DNA from: an uncultured Bacilli bacterium | GTDB taxonomy: Bacteria > Bacillota_I > Bacilli_A > RF39 > UBA660 | Reading direction: 5' to 3' | Length of the DNA: 56,040 nucleotides | Assembly (NCBI GenBank): GCA_947627225.1 | Contig: CANQVB010000002.1 | Coordinates: 1 to 56,040 of the forward strand | Position numbers and translations under genes: made by a program | Notes under the pieces: model-generated | Seen by the model: the letters and a program-made list of their open reading frames with translations, nothing else | Database searches by the model: none | What the model was told of the DNA's origin: nothing | In this document: piece by piece, positions 9,483 through 44,470 of the stretch | How positions within the stretch are numbered: the stretch's first letter is position 1 | Layout: the number at the start of each line of letters is the position of its first letter

Positions 9483-9524
9483 GGACAACACTTGTCGTAA
9501 TTCGACAAAAGTTGTCTTTTTTTT
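9483..9524 (+). terminator. Rho-independent terminator after tpiA
   Basis: GACAAC-ac-TTGTCG / CGACAA-aa-GTTGTC, a 12-bp interrupted stem with TAAT loop, followed by T8. Confidence 0.75.
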
Positions 9525-9588: not shown

Positions 9589-10365
9589 ATGAATAAAATA
9601 AGGGTCTTAATGATTGATGATAACATTGAACTCATCAACATGGTTAAGGAGTATTTTAGTAGTCACGCAAATATCGAAATAGCACTCACAGCCAACAATG
9701 GCGTAGAGGGAATGGAGAAAATTGTAAAAGAAGAAGGAAACTATGATGTCATCTTATTGGATTTAATCATGCCAAAGAAAGATGGTGTTCGTGTCCTTGA
9801 AGAAATGAAAGAAAAAGGATTAGAAAGAAAGGTCATTGTTTTAACTTCGTATAATGCACAGGAAATGATTCAAAAAGTATCTGGTCTTGGAATTAATTAT
9901 TTTATTTTGAAACCGTTTGAACTGACTGATTTAGAAAAAAGAATTGTAGAGTGCATGAAAAATGGAACAGCAGAAGGTGGAACCTTTGATTTGTATCATA
10001 ACAACTTACAAATTTCGATTACCAAGATTCTACATGAACTAGGTGTTCCTTCTCATATTAAAGGGTATCAATATATCCGAGAGGGAATTAGTATTCTTTA
10101 TGAAAACCCAGGTGTTGTAGGAGGAATTACCAAAGAACTTTATCCAGATATTGCCAAAAAGTTTGATACTACAGTATCTCGTGTAGAACGAGCCATTCGT
10201 CATGCGATTGAAGTCTCTTGGAATAGAGGAAACTGGAAATTGATGGAAGAAATTTTTGGACATAGTGTGGATATTGATAAAGCAAAACCCACCAATTCTG
10301 AGTTTATTGTCACTGTCGCCGACAAGCTTAGGTTGGAATATCATAAATTACCTATAGAAGAATAA
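9589..10365 (+). CDS. spo0A: Sporulation master response regulator Spo0A
   Basis: Receiver domain ([18 protein letters not shown]) plus the Spo0A C-terminal DNA-binding signature [43 protein letters not shown]. Confidence 0.93.
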
Positions 10366-10386
10366 GACTTGAAAGGTCTTTTTTTT
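10364..10386 (+). terminator. Weak rho-independent terminator candidate after spo0A
   Basis: AAGAC-TTGAAAG-GTCTT followed by a T-run. Confidence 0.45.
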
Positions 10387-10403: not shown

Positions 10404-10432
10404 TTGCTCATGATCGTTTTTTCTGTTACAAT
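10404..10432 (+). promoter_or_regulatory. SigmaA-type promoter candidate for the repeat-protein array
   Basis: TTGCTC-17 nt-TACAAT, 25 nt upstream of ATG 10458. Confidence 0.5.
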
Positions 10433-10457
10433 AAAAAACAAAAAGGGAGGAACGGTT

Positions 10458-11792
10458 ATGAAAGTAGAACTAATCAAATGGATAAGAAAACATTTAAAGG
10501 AAGAAGAATTTAGCAAAATTGATTTTAAAACACTTCTTGAGTATGATGAAGAAATATCTACGTTCATCTTATCATCTGATGAAGATAAAAGATTATCTTT
10601 GTTAGAATTTTTCGCTTTAAAAGAAGAGAAGAATCCTGTTTATGAGATGTATCAAAAAGATCGTGAAAAGGTAATGAAATTAGGAGAAATCATTCGAGAT
10701 GCAGAAGAAGATTATCAAGCAAAATATGCTTCAGAAACAGCACGAAACAAGGGTGTTTTAGAAAGAAAAGACGGAGTCCAAATTGTAGAAGCAGTTGCAA
10801 ATGCAAAGGGATGGGGTCAAACAATATCTGGAGCAGAGGTTGCTTGTGATGCAGGTGTTTTAAAAAAGAAAAATGCACTTAGATACGTCACATTGCTAAC
10901 AAATGCAAAGAGAGAGTATCAAGCAAGGCATGGAGCTGTTGTTGCACGATGTAGTAAAATTCTAGCAAGAGAAGATGGAGACAAATTTGTAGAAGCAGTT
11001 GCGAAGGCAAAAGGGGATTATCAAGCAAGATATGGAGTAGAGGTTGCTTGTGATGCAGAAGTTTTAAAAAATAAAAATGCACTTGGATACGTCATCTTGA
11101 TAACAAGTGCAGAAAAAGATTATCAAGCAGCATATGGAGCATTGGTTGCTCAAACTGAAGAAATTTTAGCAAGAAAAGATGGAATCAAGTTTGTAGAAGC
11201 CGTTGCAAATGCAAAGGGATGGTGTCAAACAGAATATGGAGCAAAAGTTGCTTGCAATGCAGACGTTTTAAAACATGCAGATGCGTTTAGCTATGTTGCC
11301 CTGATAACAAGTGCAGAGGAAGCTTATCCAGCAAAATATGCTTCTAAATTAGCGTGGAATAAAATTATTTTAGAAAGAGAAGACGGAGCTCAACTCGTAA
11401 GGGCAGTTGCGAATGCAAAAGGAGAGGGCCAAGCAAAATATGGAGTAAGAATCTCTTGCAACGAAGTTGTGTTAGCTAAAGAAGATGCCTTTGATTATGT
11501 GCAAAGTATTGCAAATGCAACGTCAGGAGAAGCTGCAAAGATTGCCACTACACTTTTAGAACGAGCTATCAAATTAGATTATCCAATCTCTAAATCTTTC
11601 ATTCAAAAAGTGGCAGATGGAACGTATACAGAAAAAGCAAAAAAATATTTGGGTGAAAAAATTTTAGCAGAAAGGGAAGCTATTGTTTTTGGTGATAACT
11701 GGGATATTCAACATAAAGAACAGCTGGATGTTTTACTTGCCAAAATGGGACAAAACGAAAGTAAAACCTCAAAAACCTATCAGAAAAAATAA
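10458..11792 (+). CDS. 34-residue-repeat protein, paralogue 1 (8 repeats); unassigned family
   Basis: Start moved to ATG 10458 behind GGGAGGAACGGTT. The N-domain MKVELIKWIRKHLKEEEFSKIDF is shared with three other genes in the window. No signal peptide or TM segment. Confidence 0.8.
   Translation: MKVELIKWIRKHLKEEEFSKIDFKTLLEYDEEISTFILSSDEDKRLSLLEFFALKEEKNPVYEMYQKDREKVMKLGEIIRDAEEDYQAKYASETARNKGVLERKDGVQIVEAVANAKGWGQTISGAEVACDAGVLKKKNALRYVTLLTNAKREYQARHGAVVARCSKILAREDGDKFVEAVAKAKGDYQARYGVEVACDAEVLKNKNALGYVILITSAEKDYQAAYGALVAQTEEILARKDGIKFVEAVANAKGWCQTEYGAKVACNADVLKHADAFSYVALITSAEEAYPAKYASKLAWNKIILEREDGAQLVRAVANAKGEGQAKYGVRISCNEVVLAKEDAFDYVQSIANATSGEAAKIATTLLERAIKLDYPISKSFIQKVADGTYTEKAKKYLGEKILAEREAIVFGDNWDIQHKEQLDVLLAKMGQNESKTSKTYQKK
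10713..11528 (+). repeat. Coding tandem repeat, 8 x 102 bp (34 aa)
   Basis: Back-to-back units with consensus YQAxYGAxVAxxxxxLxxxxxxx(F/Y)Vxx(V/I)xxA(K/E)xx, alternating A (ILAREDGIKFVEAV.NAKG) and B (VLKNKNAL.YVTLITSAEE) subtypes. Confidence 0.85.
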
Positions 11793-11832
11793 CTTCGAAG
11801 CAATAAAAAGTTAAAAAATAGGAGGAACAGTT

Positions 11833-13182
11833 ATGAAAGTAGAACTAATCAAGTGGATAAGAAAACATTTAAAGGAAGAAGAATTTAGCAAAATTGATTT
11901 TAAAATACTTGTTGAATATGATGAAGAAGTATTTACCTTAATCTTATCATCTAAAGAAGAAACAAGATTATCTTTGTTAGAATTTTTCGCTTTAAAAGAC
12001 AAGAACAATCCTGTTTATGAGATGTATCAAAAAGATTCTATAAAGATAATGAAATTAGGAGAAATCATTCGAGATGCAAAAGGGGCCTACCAAGCAGGCT
12101 GTGGCGTAGAACTCGCTTTGAATGAAGTTGTTTTAAAACACGAAAATTCTCTTGAATATATTACCTTGATAACAAGTGCAGAGCAAAATTATCAAGCAAG
12201 ATGTGGAGCAGACGTTGTTCAAAATGGAGAGATTTTAGCAAGAGAAGACGGAATCAAGTTTGTAGAAGCAATTGTAAATGCAAAAGGGGGTTATCAAGCA
12301 AGATATGGAGCAGAGGTTGCTTGTAATGAAGAAGTTTTAAAAAATGAAAAAGCCCTTAGTTATGTTACCTTGATAACAAATGTAGAGGAAGACGATCTAG
12401 CACAATATGGAGCAGAAGTTGCCCAAAATGGAGAGATTTTAGCAAGAGAAGATGGAATCAAGTTTGTAGAAGCCGTTGTAAATGCAAAAGGGTGGGCACA
12501 GGCAAATTATGGAGCACAAGCTGCTCGCAAGGGAATCGTTTTAGCAAATGAAAATGGAGTTCAAATTGTAGAAGCCATTGCAAGCGCAAAAGGTGAACCT
12601 CAAGCACGATATGGCTTTTGCGCCGCTTGTGATAGAACGGTTTTAAAAAATAAGGATGCCCTTAGTTATATTACCTTGATAACAAGTGCAGAGGAGAGCT
12701 ATCAAGCAATATATGGAGAAAATGTTGCGTGCCGCAAAAAAATTTTAGCAAGAGAAGACGGAATCAAGTTTGTAGAAACAGTTGTGAAAGCAAAAAAAGA
12801 AGATCAAGCATACTATGGAGCTGGTGTTGCCTGCAATTGGGCAGTTCTCGCAAAAGAAGATGCCTATGATTACGTTCAAAGTATCACAAACGCAAAAACG
12901 GAAGAAGCTGCAAGCCTTGCTGCTACACTTCTAGAACGAGCTATCGAACTGAATTGCTCAATCTCTAAGACTTTTATTCAAAGAATTGCAGATGGAACTT
13001 ATACAGAAAAAGCAAAAGAATATTTGGGTGAAAAAATAGTAGCAGAGAGGGAAGTTATTGTTTTTGGTGATAACTGGGATATTCAACACAAAGAACAGCT
13101 AGATGCCTTGCTTGCCCAAATGGAACAAAAAGAAAGTCAAATCTCAAAAACCTATCAGAAAAAAATAACTTCAAAGCAATAA
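11833..13182 (+). CDS. 34-residue-repeat protein, paralogue 2 (8 repeats)
   Basis: Same N- and C-terminal domains as paralogue 1. 40-nt spacer with GGAGGAACAGTTATG context. Confidence 0.8.
   Translation: MKVELIKWIRKHLKEEEFSKIDFKILVEYDEEVFTLILSSKEETRLSLLEFFALKDKNNPVYEMYQKDSIKIMKLGEIIRDAKGAYQAGCGVELALNEVVLKHENSLEYITLITSAEQNYQARCGADVVQNGEILAREDGIKFVEAIVNAKGGYQARYGAEVACNEEVLKNEKALSYVTLITNVEEDDLAQYGAEVAQNGEILAREDGIKFVEAVVNAKGWAQANYGAQAARKGIVLANENGVQIVEAIASAKGEPQARYGFCAACDRTVLKNKDALSYITLITSAEESYQAIYGENVACRKKILAREDGIKFVETVVKAKKEDQAYYGAGVACNWAVLAKEDAYDYVQSITNAKTEEAASLAATLLERAIELNCSISKTFIQRIADGTYTEKAKEYLGEKIVAEREVIVFGDNWDIQHKEQLDALLAQMEQKESQISKTYQKKITSKQ
12088..12903 (+). repeat. Coding tandem repeat, 8 x 102 bp
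   Basis: Same 34-aa unit as 10713..11528. Confidence 0.85.
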
Positions 13183-13208
13183 AAAGTTAAAAAATAGGAG
13201 GAACGGTT

Positions 13209-14255
13209 ATGAATGTAGGACCAATTAAGTGGATAAGAAAGAGTCTAAAGAAAAAAGAATTAATCAAGTGGATAAAAGAAAATTTATGGGAAGAAAAAAT
13301 TAGCGAAATTGATTTTAAAACACTTCTTGAATATGATGAGAAAGTCTTTGATTTAATCTTATCGACGGATGAAGGAAAAAGATTATTTTTGTTAGAATTT
13401 TTTGCTTCAAAAGGAAAGAAGAGGCCTGTTTATGAGATGTATCAAAAAGATTCTGAAAGGATAATCAAGTTAGGAGAAATCATAAAGAATGCGAAAGGAA
13501 GGTGTCAAGCAAGCTGTGGAGCAGAAGTTGCTAAAAATGGAGAAATTTTAGCGAGAAAAGATGGAGACAAATTTGTAGAAGCAGTTGTAAACGCAGAAGA
13601 AGATTACCAAGCAGAAAGTGGGGCAGGAGTTGCTTGTGATACAGACGTTTTAAAAAATAAAAAAGCGCTTAGATACGTCACATTGATAACAAATGCAGAG
13701 GAAAAGTATCAAGTATGGAATGGAGCAGAAGTGGCTCAAAATGGAGAAATTTTAGCAAGAGAAGATGGAGACAAATTTGTAGAAGCAGTTGTAAACGCAA
13801 AAGGAGATTGCCAAGCATTGGAAGGAACATACGTTGCTCAGAGGGAAAAAGTTTTAAAAAATAAAAATGCACTTGGATACGTCACCTTGATAACAAGTGC
13901 AGAAGGAGACCAGCAAGCGCTATCTGGAGCAGCGGTTGCTTGTGATGCAGATGTTCTAGCAAGAGAAGATGGAATCAAGTTTGTAGAAGCCATTACAAAA
14001 GCAAAAGGAAAAGACGAAGCAGAATATGGAGCATGGGTTGCCCAAAATGAAAAAATTTTAGCACGAGAAGATGGGATAAAATTTGTAGAAGCATTTGCAA
14101 AGGCAAAGAGGTGGAATCCTATTGCCCAATCTCTAAAGTTTTTATTCAAAAAGTGGCAGAACCAAGAACAGCTAGATGTTCTGCTTGCCCAAATGGAACA
14201 AAATAAAAGTACAATCTCAAAAACTTATCAGAAAAAGGCAACTTCAAAACAGTAA
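13209..14255 (+). CDS. 34-residue-repeat protein, paralogue 3 (6 repeats, rearranged termini; possibly decaying)
   Basis: The N-terminus carries a duplicated IKWIRK/IKWIKE segment. The C-terminal domain is mostly deleted, and a stretch homologous to PISKSFIQKVADG is read in another frame (AQSLKFLFKKWQ). Confidence 0.6.
   Translation: MNVGPIKWIRKSLKKKELIKWIKENLWEEKISEIDFKTLLEYDEKVFDLILSTDEGKRLFLLEFFASKGKKRPVYEMYQKDSERIIKLGEIIKNAKGRCQASCGAEVAKNGEILARKDGDKFVEAVVNAEEDYQAESGAGVACDTDVLKNKKALRYVTLITNAEEKYQVWNGAEVAQNGEILAREDGDKFVEAVVNAKGDCQALEGTYVAQREKVLKNKNALGYVTLITSAEGDQQALSGAAVACDADVLAREDGIKFVEAITKAKGKDEAEYGAWVAQNEKILAREDGIKFVEAFAKAKRWNPIAQSLKFLFKKWQNQEQLDVLLAQMEQNKSTISKTYQKKATSKQ
13503..14114 (+). 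repeat. Coding tandem repeat, 6 x 102 bp
   Basis: Same 34-aa unit. Confidence 0.8.
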
Positions 14256-14265
14256 AAACAAAAAG

Positions 14266-14290
14266 ACAGAGGAAATACTTCTGTTTTTTT
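14266..14290 (+). terminator. Rho-independent terminator ending the repeat-gene array
   Basis: ACAGAG-GAAATAC-TTCTGT followed by T7. Confidence 0.6.
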
Positions 14291-14380: not shown

Positions 14381-14409
14381 TTGACCCCAAAGCAAGAAAA
14401 ATGTATACT
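14381..14409 (+). promoter_or_regulatory. SigmaA-type promoter candidate
   Basis: TTGACC-17 nt-TATACT upstream of the ATPase gene. Confidence 0.5.
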
Positions 14410-14442: not shown

Positions 14443-15714
14443 ATGGAACGAAAAATAACTTATTTTCTAAAAAAGTGGAAAATGGATTTAATTCGAAAAC
14501 CTCTCTTACTGTATGGATCTAAACAAATTGGAAAAACATATACAGCGCTTTCCTTTGGGAAGAATTATTATCGTTCTACCATTTATATCAATACCTCTCA
14601 CAATAAAGAACTCTTAGAACTATTTAAAAAAGAACGCTCAATTGATAAGTTAGCCATTGCTTTTTCTAACATGACGGGTGTTGAATTTTTTAAGGAAGAA
14701 ACATTGTTTATTTTTGATAATGTCGAAGATATAGATATTGTAAAAGGAATCAAGCTCTTTGGATTTGATCGAAACAGTTATCATGTCATTGCAATCACAT
14801 CAAGACTTGATTTGCTTACGCACTTTAAGGGCGAAGAATTTCAATATAAAATGATGAGTGAGATGGATTTTGAAGAATATTTGGTGGCAAGAGGGGAGTT
14901 AGAAGTTGCTAAAAAAATCAGAGATGCTTATAACAAAAGAAAAGGGAATCCATATCATGCGAAAGCAATGGACTTGTTCATGGAGTATTTATTAACAGGA
15001 GGTTTTCCAGAAGCTGTTTTTGCTGCAGTAGAAGAACATTCTTTCACAGAAATTAGTGCCATTCAACAAAAGATATTTGATGTTTATAAAGGGGAACTGA
15101 CGAGAGAAAAGAATTTGATTGATGTCCCAAGAGGACTTGAAGTTATTTATAGTATTCCAGAACAGCTCAAAAAAGAAAATAAAAAGTTTCAATATGGATT
15201 GATTGGTTTTGGACATCGTGCGAAAGAGTATGAAAATATCATACAAAATCTTGTACGAAAACAGCTGGTCTATCGAAGTTATAAGATCAGACAAGTTAAA
15301 TCTCCTTTAAGTAGTTGTAAAGAAATAGAACATTTTAAACTCTATTTTCCAGATGATGGTCTTCTTTCTGTGTCTCTTCATCTTTTTAAAAAGCAACTGT
15401 TAGAAGATGAGGCATACAAAGAGACACTTTATGAAAACCATATCGCAAAGACTTTAGTAGAAGCAGGTTATTCACTTTATTATTACCAGTCCAGTGGAAA
15501 GGCAGAAGTAAATTTTGTAATCCAGAATAGACAAGGACAAGTGATTCCGATTGAAATTGCAACAAGAAGCAACTCGAAAGCCAAGTCGCTTTCCGTATTT
15601 ATGAAAAAATATACAACCCAAGATGCGATTCGGGTGACAGAAAATAATTTGGCTGTTAAAAAGGGAGTTTTCTATCTTCCTCCCTATGCATTCTTTTGTA
15701 TGAAAGATTTATAG
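14443..15714 (+). CDS. AAA-family ATPase of the AAA_14/DUF4143 type
   Basis: 423 aa. Walker A LLLYGSKQIGKTY, a Walker-B-like LFIFDNVED, and a C-terminal EVNFVI...IPIEIA block resembling the DUF4143 nuclease-like module. Confidence 0.65.
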   Translation: MERKITYFLKKWKMDLIRKPLLLYGSKQIGKTYTALSFGKNYYRSTIYINTSHNKELLELFKKERSIDKLAIAFSNMTGVEFFKEETLFIFDNVEDIDIVKGIKLFGFDRNSYHVIAITSRLDLLTHFKGEEFQYKMMSEMDFEEYLVARGELEVAKKIRDAYNKRKGNPYHAKAMDLFMEYLLTGGFPEAVFAAVEEHSFTEISAIQQKIFDVYKGELTREKNLIDVPRGLEVIYSIPEQLKKENKKFQYGLIGFGHRAKEYENIIQNLVRKQLVYRSYKIRQVKSPLSSCKEIEHFKLYFPDDGLLSVSLHLFKKQLLEDEAYKETLYENHIAKTLVEAGYSLYYYQSSGKAEVNFVIQNRQGQVIPIEIATRSNSKAKSLSVFMKKYTTQDAIRVTENNLAVKKGVFYLPPYAFFCMKDL

Positions 15715-41922: not shown

Positions 41923-42066
41923 GAAAGCCTAGTATACGGTTCAAATTCGGGAATGGATTATGCTGCTCCAATTTATTTTATAACTAAATTCACGAGACAT
42001 TTCAAAACGGATTGATTGCTTCTTATTCAAGCAAAAGATAAGACTTGAAGAAAGAATAAAAAATAA

Positions 42067-42095
42067 TTGCTTGCTATAATATTGCATGCTATAAT
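42067..42095 (+). promoter_or_regulatory. SigmaA-type promoter candidate for repeat-protein paralogue 4
   Basis: TTGCTT-17 nt-TATAAT. A second TGcTATAAT overlaps at 42072..42080. Confidence 0.6.
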
Positions 42096-42118: not shown

Positions 42119-44470
42119 ATGAAAGTAGAATTACTGAAATGGATAAGAAAAAATTTAGAGGAAGAAAAAATTAGCAAAATTGATTTTCAAACACTTGTTG
42201 AATATGATGAAAAAGTGTTTGCCTTAATTTTATCTTCTGAGAGGGAAAAGAAACTACCTTTACTGAAATTCTTCGCTTCAAAAGAAGAGGAAAATCCAGT
42301 TTATAAATTGTATCAAGAAAATCCTCTAAAGATAATGAAATTAGGAGAACTCATTCAATATGCAAAAGGAAAAGGCCAAGCAGAATCTGCCTCACAATTA
42401 GCACGGAATAAAGCCATCCTAACAAAAGAAAATGCTCATGAATTTGTTGAACTTATCTCAAATGCAGAAGAAGAGTACCAGGCATTTTATGGTGCAGACG
42501 TTGCCCAATATGAAGCAATTTTAGCACGAGAAGATGGAATCAAGTTTGTAGAAGCAGTTGCGAGGGCAAAGGGAATCAACCAAGCACAAGATGGAGCAAA
42601 AATTTCCAAGAATAAAGCCATTTTAAAAAATGCAGCGGCTCTTAAATGCGTTACATTAGTAACAAGTGCAGAGGAATGGTATCAAGCAGAGTATGGAACC
42701 AAAGTTGCACAATATTATGGTATGCTAGAAAGAAAAGATGGAATCAAATTTGTGGAAACAATTGTAAATGCAAAAGGAAATTATCAAGCAAGATATGGAG
42801 TAGAGGTTGTTAGTGATTTAATTTTAAAAAGCGAAAACACTCTTAGCTATGTTACATTGATAACAAATGCAGAGGAAGACTATCAAGCAGACTATGGTTC
42901 TTATGTTGCTCGTGATGAAGATGTTTTAGCAAGAGAAGGTGGAATCAAGTTTGTAGAAGCTGTTGTAAAAGCAAAAGGGAAAACGCAAGCACAATATGGA
43001 GCAAAAATTGCTCAAACAAAAGCCGTTTTAGCATGGGAGGATGGAGACCAATTTGTAGAAACGATTGCAAATGCAGAGAAAGATTATCAAGCGATATATG
43101 GAGCTGATGTTGCCCAGAACGAAGCCGTTTTAAAAAATGAAAATGCTCTTAAATATCTCAGATTGGTAACAAGTGCAGAAGAGGATTACCAAGCACAATA
43201 TGGAGCAGACGTTGCTCAAAATAGAGAAATTCTAGAAAGAAAAGATGGGGTTCAGTTTGTAGAAGCTGTTGTAAAAGCAAAAGGGAAAACGCAAGCACAA
43301 TATGGAGCAAAAATTGCTCAAACAAAAGCCGTTTTAGCATGGGAGGATGGAGACCAATTTGTAGAAACGATTGCAAATGCAGAGAAAGATTATCAAGCGA
43401 TATATGGAGCTGATGTTGCCCAGAACGAAGCCGTTTTAAAAAATGAAAATGCTCTTAAATATCTCAGATTGGTAACAAGTGCAGAAGAAGATTACCAAGC
43501 ACAATATGGTGCAGTCGTTGCTCAAAATAGAGAAATTCTAGAAAGAAAAGATGGGGTTCAGTTTGTAGAAGCAGTGGTGAACGCAAAAGAAGAATTACAA
43601 GCGAGATACGGTGCAGAGGTTGCTCGTGATGAAGATGTTCTAGCAAGAGAAGATGGGGTCCAGTTTGTAGAAGTAGTGGTAAATGCCGAAGACGAATGCC
43701 AAGCAAGATATGGAGCAACAGTTGCTCATAAAATGGCTAAATTAAAAATAGAAAATGGCCTTGCTATCACAAAGTTAATTACAACAAGCGAAGAAGCAGA
43801 ATATGGAGCAGTCGTTGCTTGCAATGAAGCTGTGTTAGCAAAAGAAGATGCTTTTGATTATATAAAAAGTATTACTCAGGCAAAGACATGGTACCAAGCA
43901 CAATTTGGAGTATCCATTGCTCAAAATAAAGAAATTTTAGCAAGAGAAGATGGAATAAAGTATGTAGAGGCCGTTGTAAACGCTAAAGTATATTATCAAG
44001 CGATGTATGGAACAGCTGTTGCTTGTAATGCAAGTGTTTTAAAAAAAGAAAATGCGCTTAGCTATGTTACTTTGATAACAAATGCAAAGGAAGAATATCA
44101 AGCAGAATATGGAGCAGAAGTGGCTTGCAATGAAGCGGTTTTAGCACAAGAAGATGCCTTTGACTATGTTCAAAGTATCACAAACGCAAAAACGGAAGAA
44201 GCGGCAAAGATTGCAACTACACTCCTAGAACAAGCCGTTTTACTAGACTTTCCAATCTCTAAGACTTTTATTCAAAAAGTCGCAGATGGAACCTATACAG
44301 AAAAAGTAAAGCAATATTTAGATGAGAAAAAAGAAGAAGAAATAAAAAATGCCACTTTTAGTGATGATTGGAATATTCAAAACAAAAAACAATTAGATAT
44401 ACTGATTGCTCAGATGGAACAAGAAAACACAATTTCAAAAACATATCAGAAAAAAGCACCTTCAAAATAA
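42119..44470 (+). CDS. 34-residue-repeat protein, paralogue 4 (18 repeats, 783 aa)
   Basis: Same RBS context (GGAGGAACGGTTATG) and same N-domain (MKVELLKWIRKNLEEEKISKIDF) and C-domain (AAKIATTLLEQAV...FIQKVADGTYTEK) as the 10.4-14.3 kb array. Confidence 0.85.
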   Translation: MKVELLKWIRKNLEEEKISKIDFQTLVEYDEKVFALILSSEREKKLPLLKFFASKEEENPVYKLYQENPLKIMKLGELIQYAKGKGQAESASQLARNKAILTKENAHEFVELISNAEEEYQAFYGADVAQYEAILAREDGIKFVEAVARAKGINQAQDGAKISKNKAILKNAAALKCVTLVTSAEEWYQAEYGTKVAQYYGMLERKDGIKFVETIVNAKGNYQARYGVEVVSDLILKSENTLSYVTLITNAEEDYQADYGSYVARDEDVLAREGGIKFVEAVVKAKGKTQAQYGAKIAQTKAVLAWEDGDQFVETIANAEKDYQAIYGADVAQNEAVLKNENALKYLRLVTSAEEDYQAQYGADVAQNREILERKDGVQFVEAVVKAKGKTQAQYGAKIAQTKAVLAWEDGDQFVETIANAEKDYQAIYGADVAQNEAVLKNENALKYLRLVTSAEEDYQAQYGAVVAQNREILERKDGVQFVEAVVNAKEELQARYGAEVARDEDVLAREDGVQFVEVVVNAEDECQARYGATVAHKMAKLKIENGLAITKLITTSEEAEYGAVVACNEAVLAKEDAFDYIKSITQAKTWYQAQFGVSIAQNKEILAREDGIKYVEAVVNAKVYYQAMYGTAVACNASVLKKENALSYVTLITNAKEEYQAEYGAEVACNEAVLAQEDAFDYVQSITNAKTEEAAKIATTLLEQAVLLDFPISKTFIQKVADGTYTEKVKQYLDEKKEEEIKNATFSDDWNIQNKKQLDILIAQMEQENTISKTYQKKAPSK
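42374..44197 (+). repeat. Coding tandem repeat, 18 units of about 102 bp
   Basis: Units of 34 aa; three units are 32-33 aa. Confidence 0.85.
42951..43572 (+). repeat. Near-identical 306-bp tandem duplication (2 x three 34-aa units)
   Basis: 42961..43266 versus 43267..43572 differ at 3 positions by eye (GAGGAT/GAAGAT; GGAGCAGAC/GGTGCAGTC). Confidence 0.85.

Follow-up and report, generated by a model that had tools for sequence, protein, structure and literature searches.

A new family of strictly periodic 34-residue helical-repeat proteins in uncultured gut Bacilli, with a three-gene array beside spo0A

In the genome of an uncultured Bacilli bacterium (GenBank assembly GCA_947627225.1), three paralogous genes encoding proteins built from strict 34-residue repeats lie in tandem directly downstream of spo0A, which raises the question of what kind of proteins they encode and whether their position ties them to the control of sporulation. 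We analyzed the 56,040-nt stretch of contig CANQVB010000002.1 that carries them (hereafter the window) and set the results beside an earlier description of the locus, made without database searches (hereafter the sequence-only reading). The three genes are designated A, B and C, and a fourth paralog in the same genome, D, which the earlier description had missed, lies 28 kb from the array. On balance it seems probable that these genes represent a lineage-specific expansion of a new cytoplasmic modular binding scaffold and that the position beside spo0A is incidental. The proteins constitute a new helical-repeat family, with no domain model, no solved relative and an N-terminal domain (N-domain) without a known fold; the alpha-solenoid class to which they belong is itself known.

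The array consists, as the sequence-only reading had it, of three paralogous open reading frames (ORFs) on the + strand at the coordinates given there (Table 1), separated by gaps of 40 and 26 nt and preceded by near-identical start contexts (GGAGGAAC(G/A)GTT ATG at 10446-10453, 11821-11828 and 13197-13204). When set in register, the strict 34-aa repeats aligned without gaps, eight in A, eight in B and six in C, and they follow an N-domain common to all three proteins (~81 aa; 94 aa in C). Self-identity of the A-C proteins at lag 34 was 23-26%, against ~5% at lags 33 and 35, and Tandem Repeats Finder detected periods of 102/204 nt in all three genes. The proteins contain no transmembrane segment or signal-like N-terminus, the maximum Kyte-Doolittle value over a 19-aa window being ≤1.11. 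Other parts of the earlier description required amendment. The C-terminal domain (C-domain) assigned to all three genes is present in A and B, but most of it is gone from C, which retains its last ~30 aa (the conserved tail, QLDVLLAQMEQN..KTYQKK). Gene C also carries a 13-aa N-terminal extension in common with P0001, a relative from the protein searches described below, and belongs to the same subtype as that protein. The alternation of two unit subtypes is strict in gene A but not elsewhere, and a third subtype, VLAKEDAFDYVQSI, closes the arrays. Position 10404, at which the earlier description opened the array, is only where a TTG makes the ORF begin mechanically, and it falls on the predicted -35 hexamer; the genes begin at 10458. 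At the end of gene A (11780-11810), an A-run lacks one base that B, C and D have, so that the gene stops five codons early (..YQKK*) and its product is 5 residues shorter at the end than that of B. The leftover ..TSKQ* codons can be read out of frame in the spacer that follows.

AlphaFold2 modeling of the gene B protein gave a predicted local distance difference test score (pLDDT) of 87 and a predicted TM-score (pTM) of 0.80, and DSSP assigned three helices to each unit, of ~11, 4-5 and 9 residues. Because the units are made of three helices that stack on one another in the model, the protein is an alpha-solenoid, which, together with the lack of transmembrane or signal sequences, bears out the proposal that these are cytoplasmic helical-repeat proteins. 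Three helices set the unit apart from the two-helix units of TPR, HEAT and TALE. Read cyclically, it comprises two alpha-helices and one short helix, the same topology as in ARM and mTERF units, and the gene B model thus shows the features by which mTERF/pTERF units are defined (~30-35 aa, two alpha-helices and one short helix). Foldseek searches against the PDB returned nearly exclusively TAL effectors (dHax3, AvrBs3) and designed helical repeats, and the TAL effector matches were weak (E 7e-4 to 1e-2, probability 0.8-1.0, TM-score 0.14-0.24, root-mean-square deviation (rmsd) >20 Å). No mTERF chain appeared in the PDB profile searches or among the top 50 fold matches, no ARM protein was among those 50, and the full model searched against viral structures gave nothing below E 0.1. 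The N-domain alone was modeled with a pLDDT of 93; it had no fold match in the PDB (Foldseek, E >7) and no helix-turn-helix (HTH). The unit profile was also aligned by hhalign with typed-in TALE, TPR, ARM, PPR, ankyrin and HEAT-PBS units, and probability was ≤0.4% throughout. The TALE value, 0.4%, was barely over that of column-shuffled controls.

The suggestion that the repeat fits no characterized family held up, there being no meaningful match in Pfam, NCBIfam, PADLOC, PHROGs or PDB profile searches. The window proteins had no match in Pfam and NCBIfam scans, and no Pfam family was common to more than one of the 77 relatives scanned, in which isolated weak matches to CLASP_N (E 0.0012) and ARM_TT21_5th (E 0.0075) occurred in one member each. 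PADLOC produced noise for A and D (E about 0.008) and nothing for B, C and the relatives P0004, P0014 and P0050, and PHROGs gave no meaningful match for the repeat proteins. PDB sequences searched with a single protein and with full-length, 34-aa unit and N-domain profiles yielded noise only (bL27, protein A and designed repeats).

Relatives were also scarce. The exact proteins of the window are absent from a 15-billion-protein collection; a word-indexed search with the full protein found one relative, P0001 (375 aa, with a gene-C-like architecture), and the same type of search with an N-domain profile found P0013 only and with a double-unit profile nothing. A look-up of the genomic context of P0001 returned nothing. 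Relatives were likewise absent from pattern scans of GTDB genomes, IMG/VR and JGI metagenomes, and tblastn gave no match in phage and plasmid collections. HMMER, run exhaustively against 1.84 billion cluster representatives, resulted in 107 matches at E ≤ 1e-3, with 54 at ≤ 1e-10 and 13 at ≤ 1e-30. On inspection, the lowest-ranked of the 107 (e.g., P0070, P0094 and P0107) were unrelated repeat proteins, and ~60-70 were genuine relatives, all of them unnamed gut-metagenome proteins that share the N-domain, the 34-aa units and the tail. The family is rare, has no name and occurs in uncultured low-GC gut Bacilli. P0013, from a 501-bp contig in ENA, carries residues 1-85 of paralog D before its frame is broken. 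To judge from this fragment, the same species appears in public metagenomes only as contigs shattered at these repeat genes. Part of the family's rarity is an artifact, since short-read assemblies break in these repeat genes, as in P0013. This is a practical blind spot: the genes are nearly missing from public protein sets, partly through repeats that break short-read assemblies.

The relatives share a helical N-domain of ~80-120 aa (MKKxLLxxLLxxIK...LTDEQIxxIL...IYLYL) and contain 3 to 17 units per protein at 34-residue spacing, and D has 18. The unit family consensus is KGxYQAxYAxxVAxNxxVLxRxDAlEiVKxIANA. The C-terminus is formed by a helix, an acidic stretch and a short basic tail (..LDxLIxxL..EDIxPxTKVKIK / ..KTYQKK); the tail is T.VKVKIK-like in the relatives, and its counterpart in the window proteins is QLDALLAQMEQ..SKTYQKK. 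Most members are acidic, with a median isoelectric point (pI) of 5.3, 47 of 60 members below 6, and net charges of -15 for B and -31 for D.

Conservation was examined across 94 units. The most conserved residue is a Gln (89%), followed by an Ala (85%), a VA pair, an N/D before the short helix, the Leu of the short helix and a V/I in the third helix. By entropy, variability is greatest along a stripe of the long helix (i, i+4, i+8, i+11) and at the first residues of the other two helices. For the 40 units of the four window paralogs, the ratio of nonsynonymous to synonymous change (pN/pS) was about 0.67, and pN was highest at positions 4, 8, 12, 15, 18 and 31, where it reached the synonymous level, in agreement with the entropy profile. 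The N- and C-domains gave pN/pS values of 0.2-0.6 for most paralog pairs and of 1.2 for the near-identical N-domains of A and B, which are 92% identical in DNA. These pN/pS values of domains and repeats indicate that the genes are under constraint, with one surface evolving by relaxed or diversifying change.

Taken together, the data show a cytoplasmic alpha-solenoid in which one stripe differs between units, the capping domains are conserved, and copies and units turn over rapidly. We propose that the stripe at positions 4, 8, 12 and 15, together with the helix starts at 17/18 and 26/27, all variable from unit to unit, would be exposed, and that the opposite faces (Q6, A7, G/A10, V13, A14, L20 and V29) would form the conserved core. 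Stacked units would then present a long surface, variable unit by unit, that could recognize an extended ligand. The variable stripe would be the ligand surface, and the ligand is most probably a protein or peptide, which we favor over nucleic acid because the family is mostly acidic. The family diversifies by tandem gene duplication, duplication of unit blocks and recombination between paralogs. If this is correct, domain databases have missed a clean, strictly periodic alpha-solenoid family that is restricted to uncultured gut Bacilli with reduced genomes and is expanding there as genes and units are duplicated. Natural repeat proteins of such strict periodicity serve as starting points for designed binders, and TALE, PUF, PPR and pTERF proteins were turned into tools once their ligands were known.

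Several points weigh against a protein-binding scaffold. The exposure of the variable stripe rests on helical periodicity only, and variability at positions 16-18 can be explained simply by the N-capping preferences of helices. A pN/pS below 1 does not demonstrate diversifying selection. No pathway is indicated by a conserved neighbor gene. The closest folds belong to TAL effectors, which bind DNA, and the DNA-binding pTERF is another three-helix family from gut Bacillota genomes assembled from metagenomes (PMC11417379).

A code like the repeat-variable diresidues (RVD) of TALE, placed at N15 and the next two residues, was considered and rejected; N/D followed by E/D/P/S/T has the look of a helix N-cap.

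We found no paper describing this repeat family, and the closest is the report on pTERF, a prokaryotic mTERF-like family (Hu et al. 2024, Nucleic Acids Research). The pTERF proteins consist of tandem ~35-aa three-helix units, 3-11 per protein, and are known only from gut metagenome-assembled genomes (MAGs), mostly of Bacillota (PMC11417379). DNA binding was demonstrated for pTERF1 and pTERF2, and pTERF1 (MBQ3414883.1, with annotated mTERF motifs) binds ACTNNNAGTC with a Kd of 1.9 nM (PMC11417379). Compared by description only, the two families are alike in their tandem three-helix units, their origin in gut MAGs of mostly Bacillota, their rarity in databases and a unit order that differs between members; they differ in that pTERF has a period of 35 and mTERF motifs, whereas the present family has a period of 34, no match to Pfam mTERF (PF02536) and a mostly acidic composition.

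TAL effectors and TALE-like proteins (RipTAL, Bat/BurrH and MOrTL) share with the present proteins the period of 34 residues and a layout in which an N-domain is followed by units of variable number and a C-terminal region, and to these are added the best Foldseek matches and a faint motif, IA(N/S)..G.(Y/K)QA. In contrast, TALE units have two helices, the second of them kinked, with variability at residues 12/13, whereas the units here have three helices and ~8 variable positions. There is no profile similarity (PF03377 and PDB chains), the global TM-score is ≤0.24, and the genes lie among housekeeping genes in hosts without a type III secretion context. ARM/HEAT solenoids such as importin-alpha and beta-catenin resemble the family in the cyclic arrangement of a short helix and two longer ones, in a variable face on the longest helix, like ARM ligand grooves, and as cytoplasmic scaffolds. 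The period, however, is 34 aa here and ~42 (ARM) or 37-47 (HEAT) there, the window proteins have no Pfam Arm/HEAT match, and hhalign against typed ARM and HEAT-PBS consensus sequences was negative. TPR proteins of the Rap/RRNPP type likewise have a 34-residue period, cytoplasmic helical repeats and a Firmicute host, and the proximity to spo0A in this one genome adds to the likeness. The TPR is a two-helix unit with the pattern W4-L7-G8-Y11-A20-F24-A27-P32, which is not present here, and the family has no Pfam TPR match, HTH, Phr gene or conserved phosphorelay link; hhalign against a typed TPR consensus was also negative.

To return to spo0A, the sequence-only reading had raised a regulatory link to Spo0A and the phosphorelay by analogy with Rap/RRNPP proteins. 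Synteny was surveyed at 80 loci around the closest Spo0A homologs, all of them in MAGs of uncultured gut Bacilli, Clostridium sp. CAG:710 and CAG:417 among them; the best Spo0A matches came from rabbit-gut MAGs and were 87-90% identical. The family was found at 0 of the 80 related spo0A loci within 10 kb, either by tblastn with A, B and C or by a search of all ORFs with a hidden Markov model (HMM) of the unit. The survey of relatives for synteny, which the earlier description had itself put forward as a check, thus found the family absent near spo0A, an outcome that the description had also named as a refutation. With unrelated contexts elsewhere, units of three helices and no Phr ORF or 0A box, the proposed link did not survive.

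In the closest relative (L001, Spo0A 90% identical), the gene order is glycosyltransferase-tpi-spo0A-DUF4143 ATPase-gpm-dinB, and the gap between spo0A and the ATPase gene is ~100 bp. Alignment with this locus placed the 3.9-kb block of the window exactly between the spo0A terminator and the ATPase promoter, and the array block is an insertion relative to L001. In other relatives the slot is occupied by AbiD (L002 and L003, 10866-11825; PADLOC 3e-62), a SoFic-like Fic protein (L020, 10873-11610; PDC-S04, 1e-85), an ORF6N protein (L074, 4826-5698; PDC-S05, 6e-94), a sulfatase-family protein or one of several unknowns. Because the family is absent from the 80 loci and the content of the slot differs among relatives, the position beside spo0A is incidental, and the array represents cargo specific to this lineage in a slot of variable content. 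With regard to sporulation this is a negative result, placing the array outside the Spo0A circuit. Between spo0A and the DUF4143 gene, the slot has the behavior of an integration hotspot whose cargo is defense-like. The AAA_14/DUF4143 ATPase gene itself (14443-15714, +) matches the PADLOC defense candidate PDC-S01 (4e-108) and is a conserved neighbor of spo0A in most related genomes.

Paralog D matches the array in N-domain, C-domain, tail, ribosome-binding site and promoter layout, and the repeat HMM matched it at 6e-156 over 18 units. It contains a three-unit internal duplication and a terminal-type unit in mid-array, and it is located between a small GNAT-like ORF and a small membrane ORF plus leuS. 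Upstream of D (42037-42060) stands ATAAGACTTGAA, identical to the spo0A stop codon and the left arm of its terminator (10360-10376). This shared sequence suggests that D may have been copied from the spo0A-adjacent array with a little of its upstream flank.

In other genomes, family members lie between recA and rny (L081), in tandem as two genes after an AAA ATPase gene and before rpsO-pnp (L083), between thioredoxin and GyrB/ParE-family topoisomerase genes (L090) and between truA and rplM (L093), and a distant relative lies between a phosphotransferase system (PTS) EIIB gene and an orphan histidine kinase gene (L088). A further array, in another uncultured organism, comprises five tandem paralogs (9, 12, 17, 16 and at least 13 units) downstream of greA (L086, 8001-17605). 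Across the eight unrelated contexts (these six loci and the spo0A and leuS sites of the window), there was no conserved partner gene. A polymorphic-toxin immunity array was considered and rejected, there being no adjacent toxin gene in any context.

Four other explanations have to be weighed against a protein-binding scaffold. The proteins might be modular, sequence-specific nucleic-acid binders of the TALE/pTERF type, in which the solenoid winds around DNA or RNA, the variable residues of every 34-aa unit touch one nucleotide or a few, and the unit order sets the target. The 34-aa period points this way, as does an organization of N-domain, variable unit number and C-terminal acidic stretch with basic tail, and so do the top PDB matches in Foldseek, almost all of them TAL effectors at probability 0.8-1.0. 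In TALE, Q17 contacts the phosphate. The best hhalign register, which is not significant, sets IANAKGxYQA on the TALE sequence IASNxGGKQA and the conserved Gln (89%) on that Q17. The pTERF proteins, with their tandem three-helix ~35-aa units from gut MAGs of mostly Bacillota, do bind DNA (PMC11417379). These matches are nevertheless poor, at a Foldseek E of about 1e-3, TM 0.15-0.24 and rmsd >20 Å, and at an hhalign probability of 0.4%, near shuffled controls. Pfam TAL_effector and mTERF are unmatched at E ≤ 1, and no TALE or mTERF chain in the PDB is matched at E ≤ 10. The ~8 variable positions, which accept a broad range of residues (W, I, L and Y among them), are unlike a two- or three-residue code, and the mostly acidic family (median pI 5.3; B -15, D -31) is without a strongly basic domain. 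We consider nucleic-acid binding of this kind unlikely, and a shade less likely still that the family is a new programmable class of TALE/pTERF-like nucleic-acid readers native to gut Bacilli, whose paralogs (6, 8, 8 and 18 units) read different chromosomal or RNA targets. If it were so, the interest would be high, for such a modular scaffold for recognition would be new and would bear no sequence relationship to TALE, PUF, PPR and mTERF.

The content of the slot raises the thought of an anti-phage or conflict system, in which the repeat array would serve as a fast-diversifying sensor or decoy for phage proteins in a defense hotspot. AbiD, Fic and ORF6N in the relatives and the PDC-S01 match of the constant neighbor are in keeping with this, and so are the patchy distribution, tandem paralogs, unit shuffling and elevated repeat pN/pS. 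The repeat proteins themselves, however, have no PADLOC/PHROG match, none of 77 relatives has a fused or adjacent effector domain, most other members lie between housekeeping genes and outside defense islands, and the family is absent from the phage and plasmid collections. The PDC families are candidates only, and the DUF4143 gene is a conserved core neighbor of spo0A in the clade, all of which makes a defense role improbable in our view. Much less credit is due to the idea of Rap/RRNPP-like modulators of the Spo0A phosphorelay, kept by spo0A for co-regulation. Adjacency would favor it, with a spo0A terminator weak enough (-4.7 kcal/mol) that it could permit read-through, and the distant relative L088 adjoins its orphan histidine kinase amid a neighborhood rich in sporulation genes. 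The 80 relatives offer no synteny, this genome has a further paralog away from spo0A, and the remaining contexts are unrelated; moreover, three helices per unit, the lack of a TPR/HTH match and of a downstream Phr-like ORF, and sigma-A-type-looking promoters with no 0A box before the array or D make this very unlikely. Least likely of all is a functionless, decaying expansion of a repetitive gene, by selfish duplication or as pseudogenes, for which the loss of most of the C-domain from C, the loss of the last five codons from A and the high repeat pN/pS (about 0.65) could be adduced. Against decay, all four ORFs run uninterrupted for 348-783 codons behind a strong ribosome-binding site, the N- and C-domains are under purifying selection (pN/pS 0.2-0.6), the C-type architecture is kept in another genome (P0001), and the family is conserved across divergent genomes.

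The block 10404-14290, an ordinary-looking operon inserted in this lineage, would form a single sigma-A-type transcription unit of three paralogs between the spo0A terminator and the DUF4143/AAA_14 promoter (Table 1). The sequence-only reading had given the array its own promoter immediately after that terminator, and the prediction stands, as a sigma-A-type promoter with an extended -10 conserved before D; an AATTGCT..17 nt..TGnTAnAAT arrangement is found upstream of both the array and D. The array promoter is probably active, judged by its sequence, and read-through from spo0A into the array is possible. The hairpin that follows spo0A has an equivalent at the same place in L001, and relatives in other genomes have sigma-A-like promoters, often with an extended -10. 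Alignment with L001 and the promoter scan placed the right boundary of the insertion between the array terminator and ~14380. No 0A box was found upstream of the array or of paralog D, and no Phr-like small ORF was found in the gaps of 40/26 nt or in the 187 nt after gene C.

Table 1. Coordinates of the repeat genes and of the features that flank them in the window
Feature	Coordinates	Strand	Description
Gene A	10458..11792	+	444 aa; N-domain aa 1-81; 8 x 34-aa repeats aa 82-353 (nt 10701-11516); C-domain and tail
Gene B	11833..13182	+	449 aa; N-domain; 8 x 34-aa repeats nt 12076-12891; C-domain 96 aa
Gene C	13209..14255	+	348 aa; extended N-domain 94 aa; 6 x 34-aa repeats nt 13491-14102; ~50-aa C-terminal region
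Paralog D	42119..44470	+	783 aa; 18 repeats (nt 42362-44185, including units of 33 and 31 aa); missed by the sequence-only reading
spo0A	9589-10365		TIGR02875 match, 9e-83; gene upstream of the array
spo0A intrinsic terminator	10365..10386	+	Weak hairpin, -4.7 kcal/mol (RNAfold), then TTTTTTTT (T8); left boundary of the inserted block
Predicted sigma-A-type array promoter	10404..10432	+	-35 TTGCTC (10404-10409), 17-nt spacer, TG-extended -10 TGtTACAAT (10424-10432)
Predicted promoter of paralog D	42067..42095	+	TTGCTT, 17 nt, TGcTATAAT
Array intrinsic terminator	14266..14290	+	7-bp stem by hand, ~13 bp in the RNAfold fold; -12.7 kcal/mol; then T7
Native promoter of the DUF4143 ATPase gene	TTGACC 14381.., TATACT 14404-14409		From promoter scan

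No Rfam family was matched at gathering score in the window (1-56040), which therefore gave no tRNA, rRNA or riboswitch matches. Upstream of spo0A, at 9492-9508, we noted an inverted repeat, TTGTCGTAATTCGACAA, that contains a 0A-box core (TTCGACA, 9501-9507) and could serve either in autoregulation by Spo0A or as the terminator of the tpi-like gene before it.

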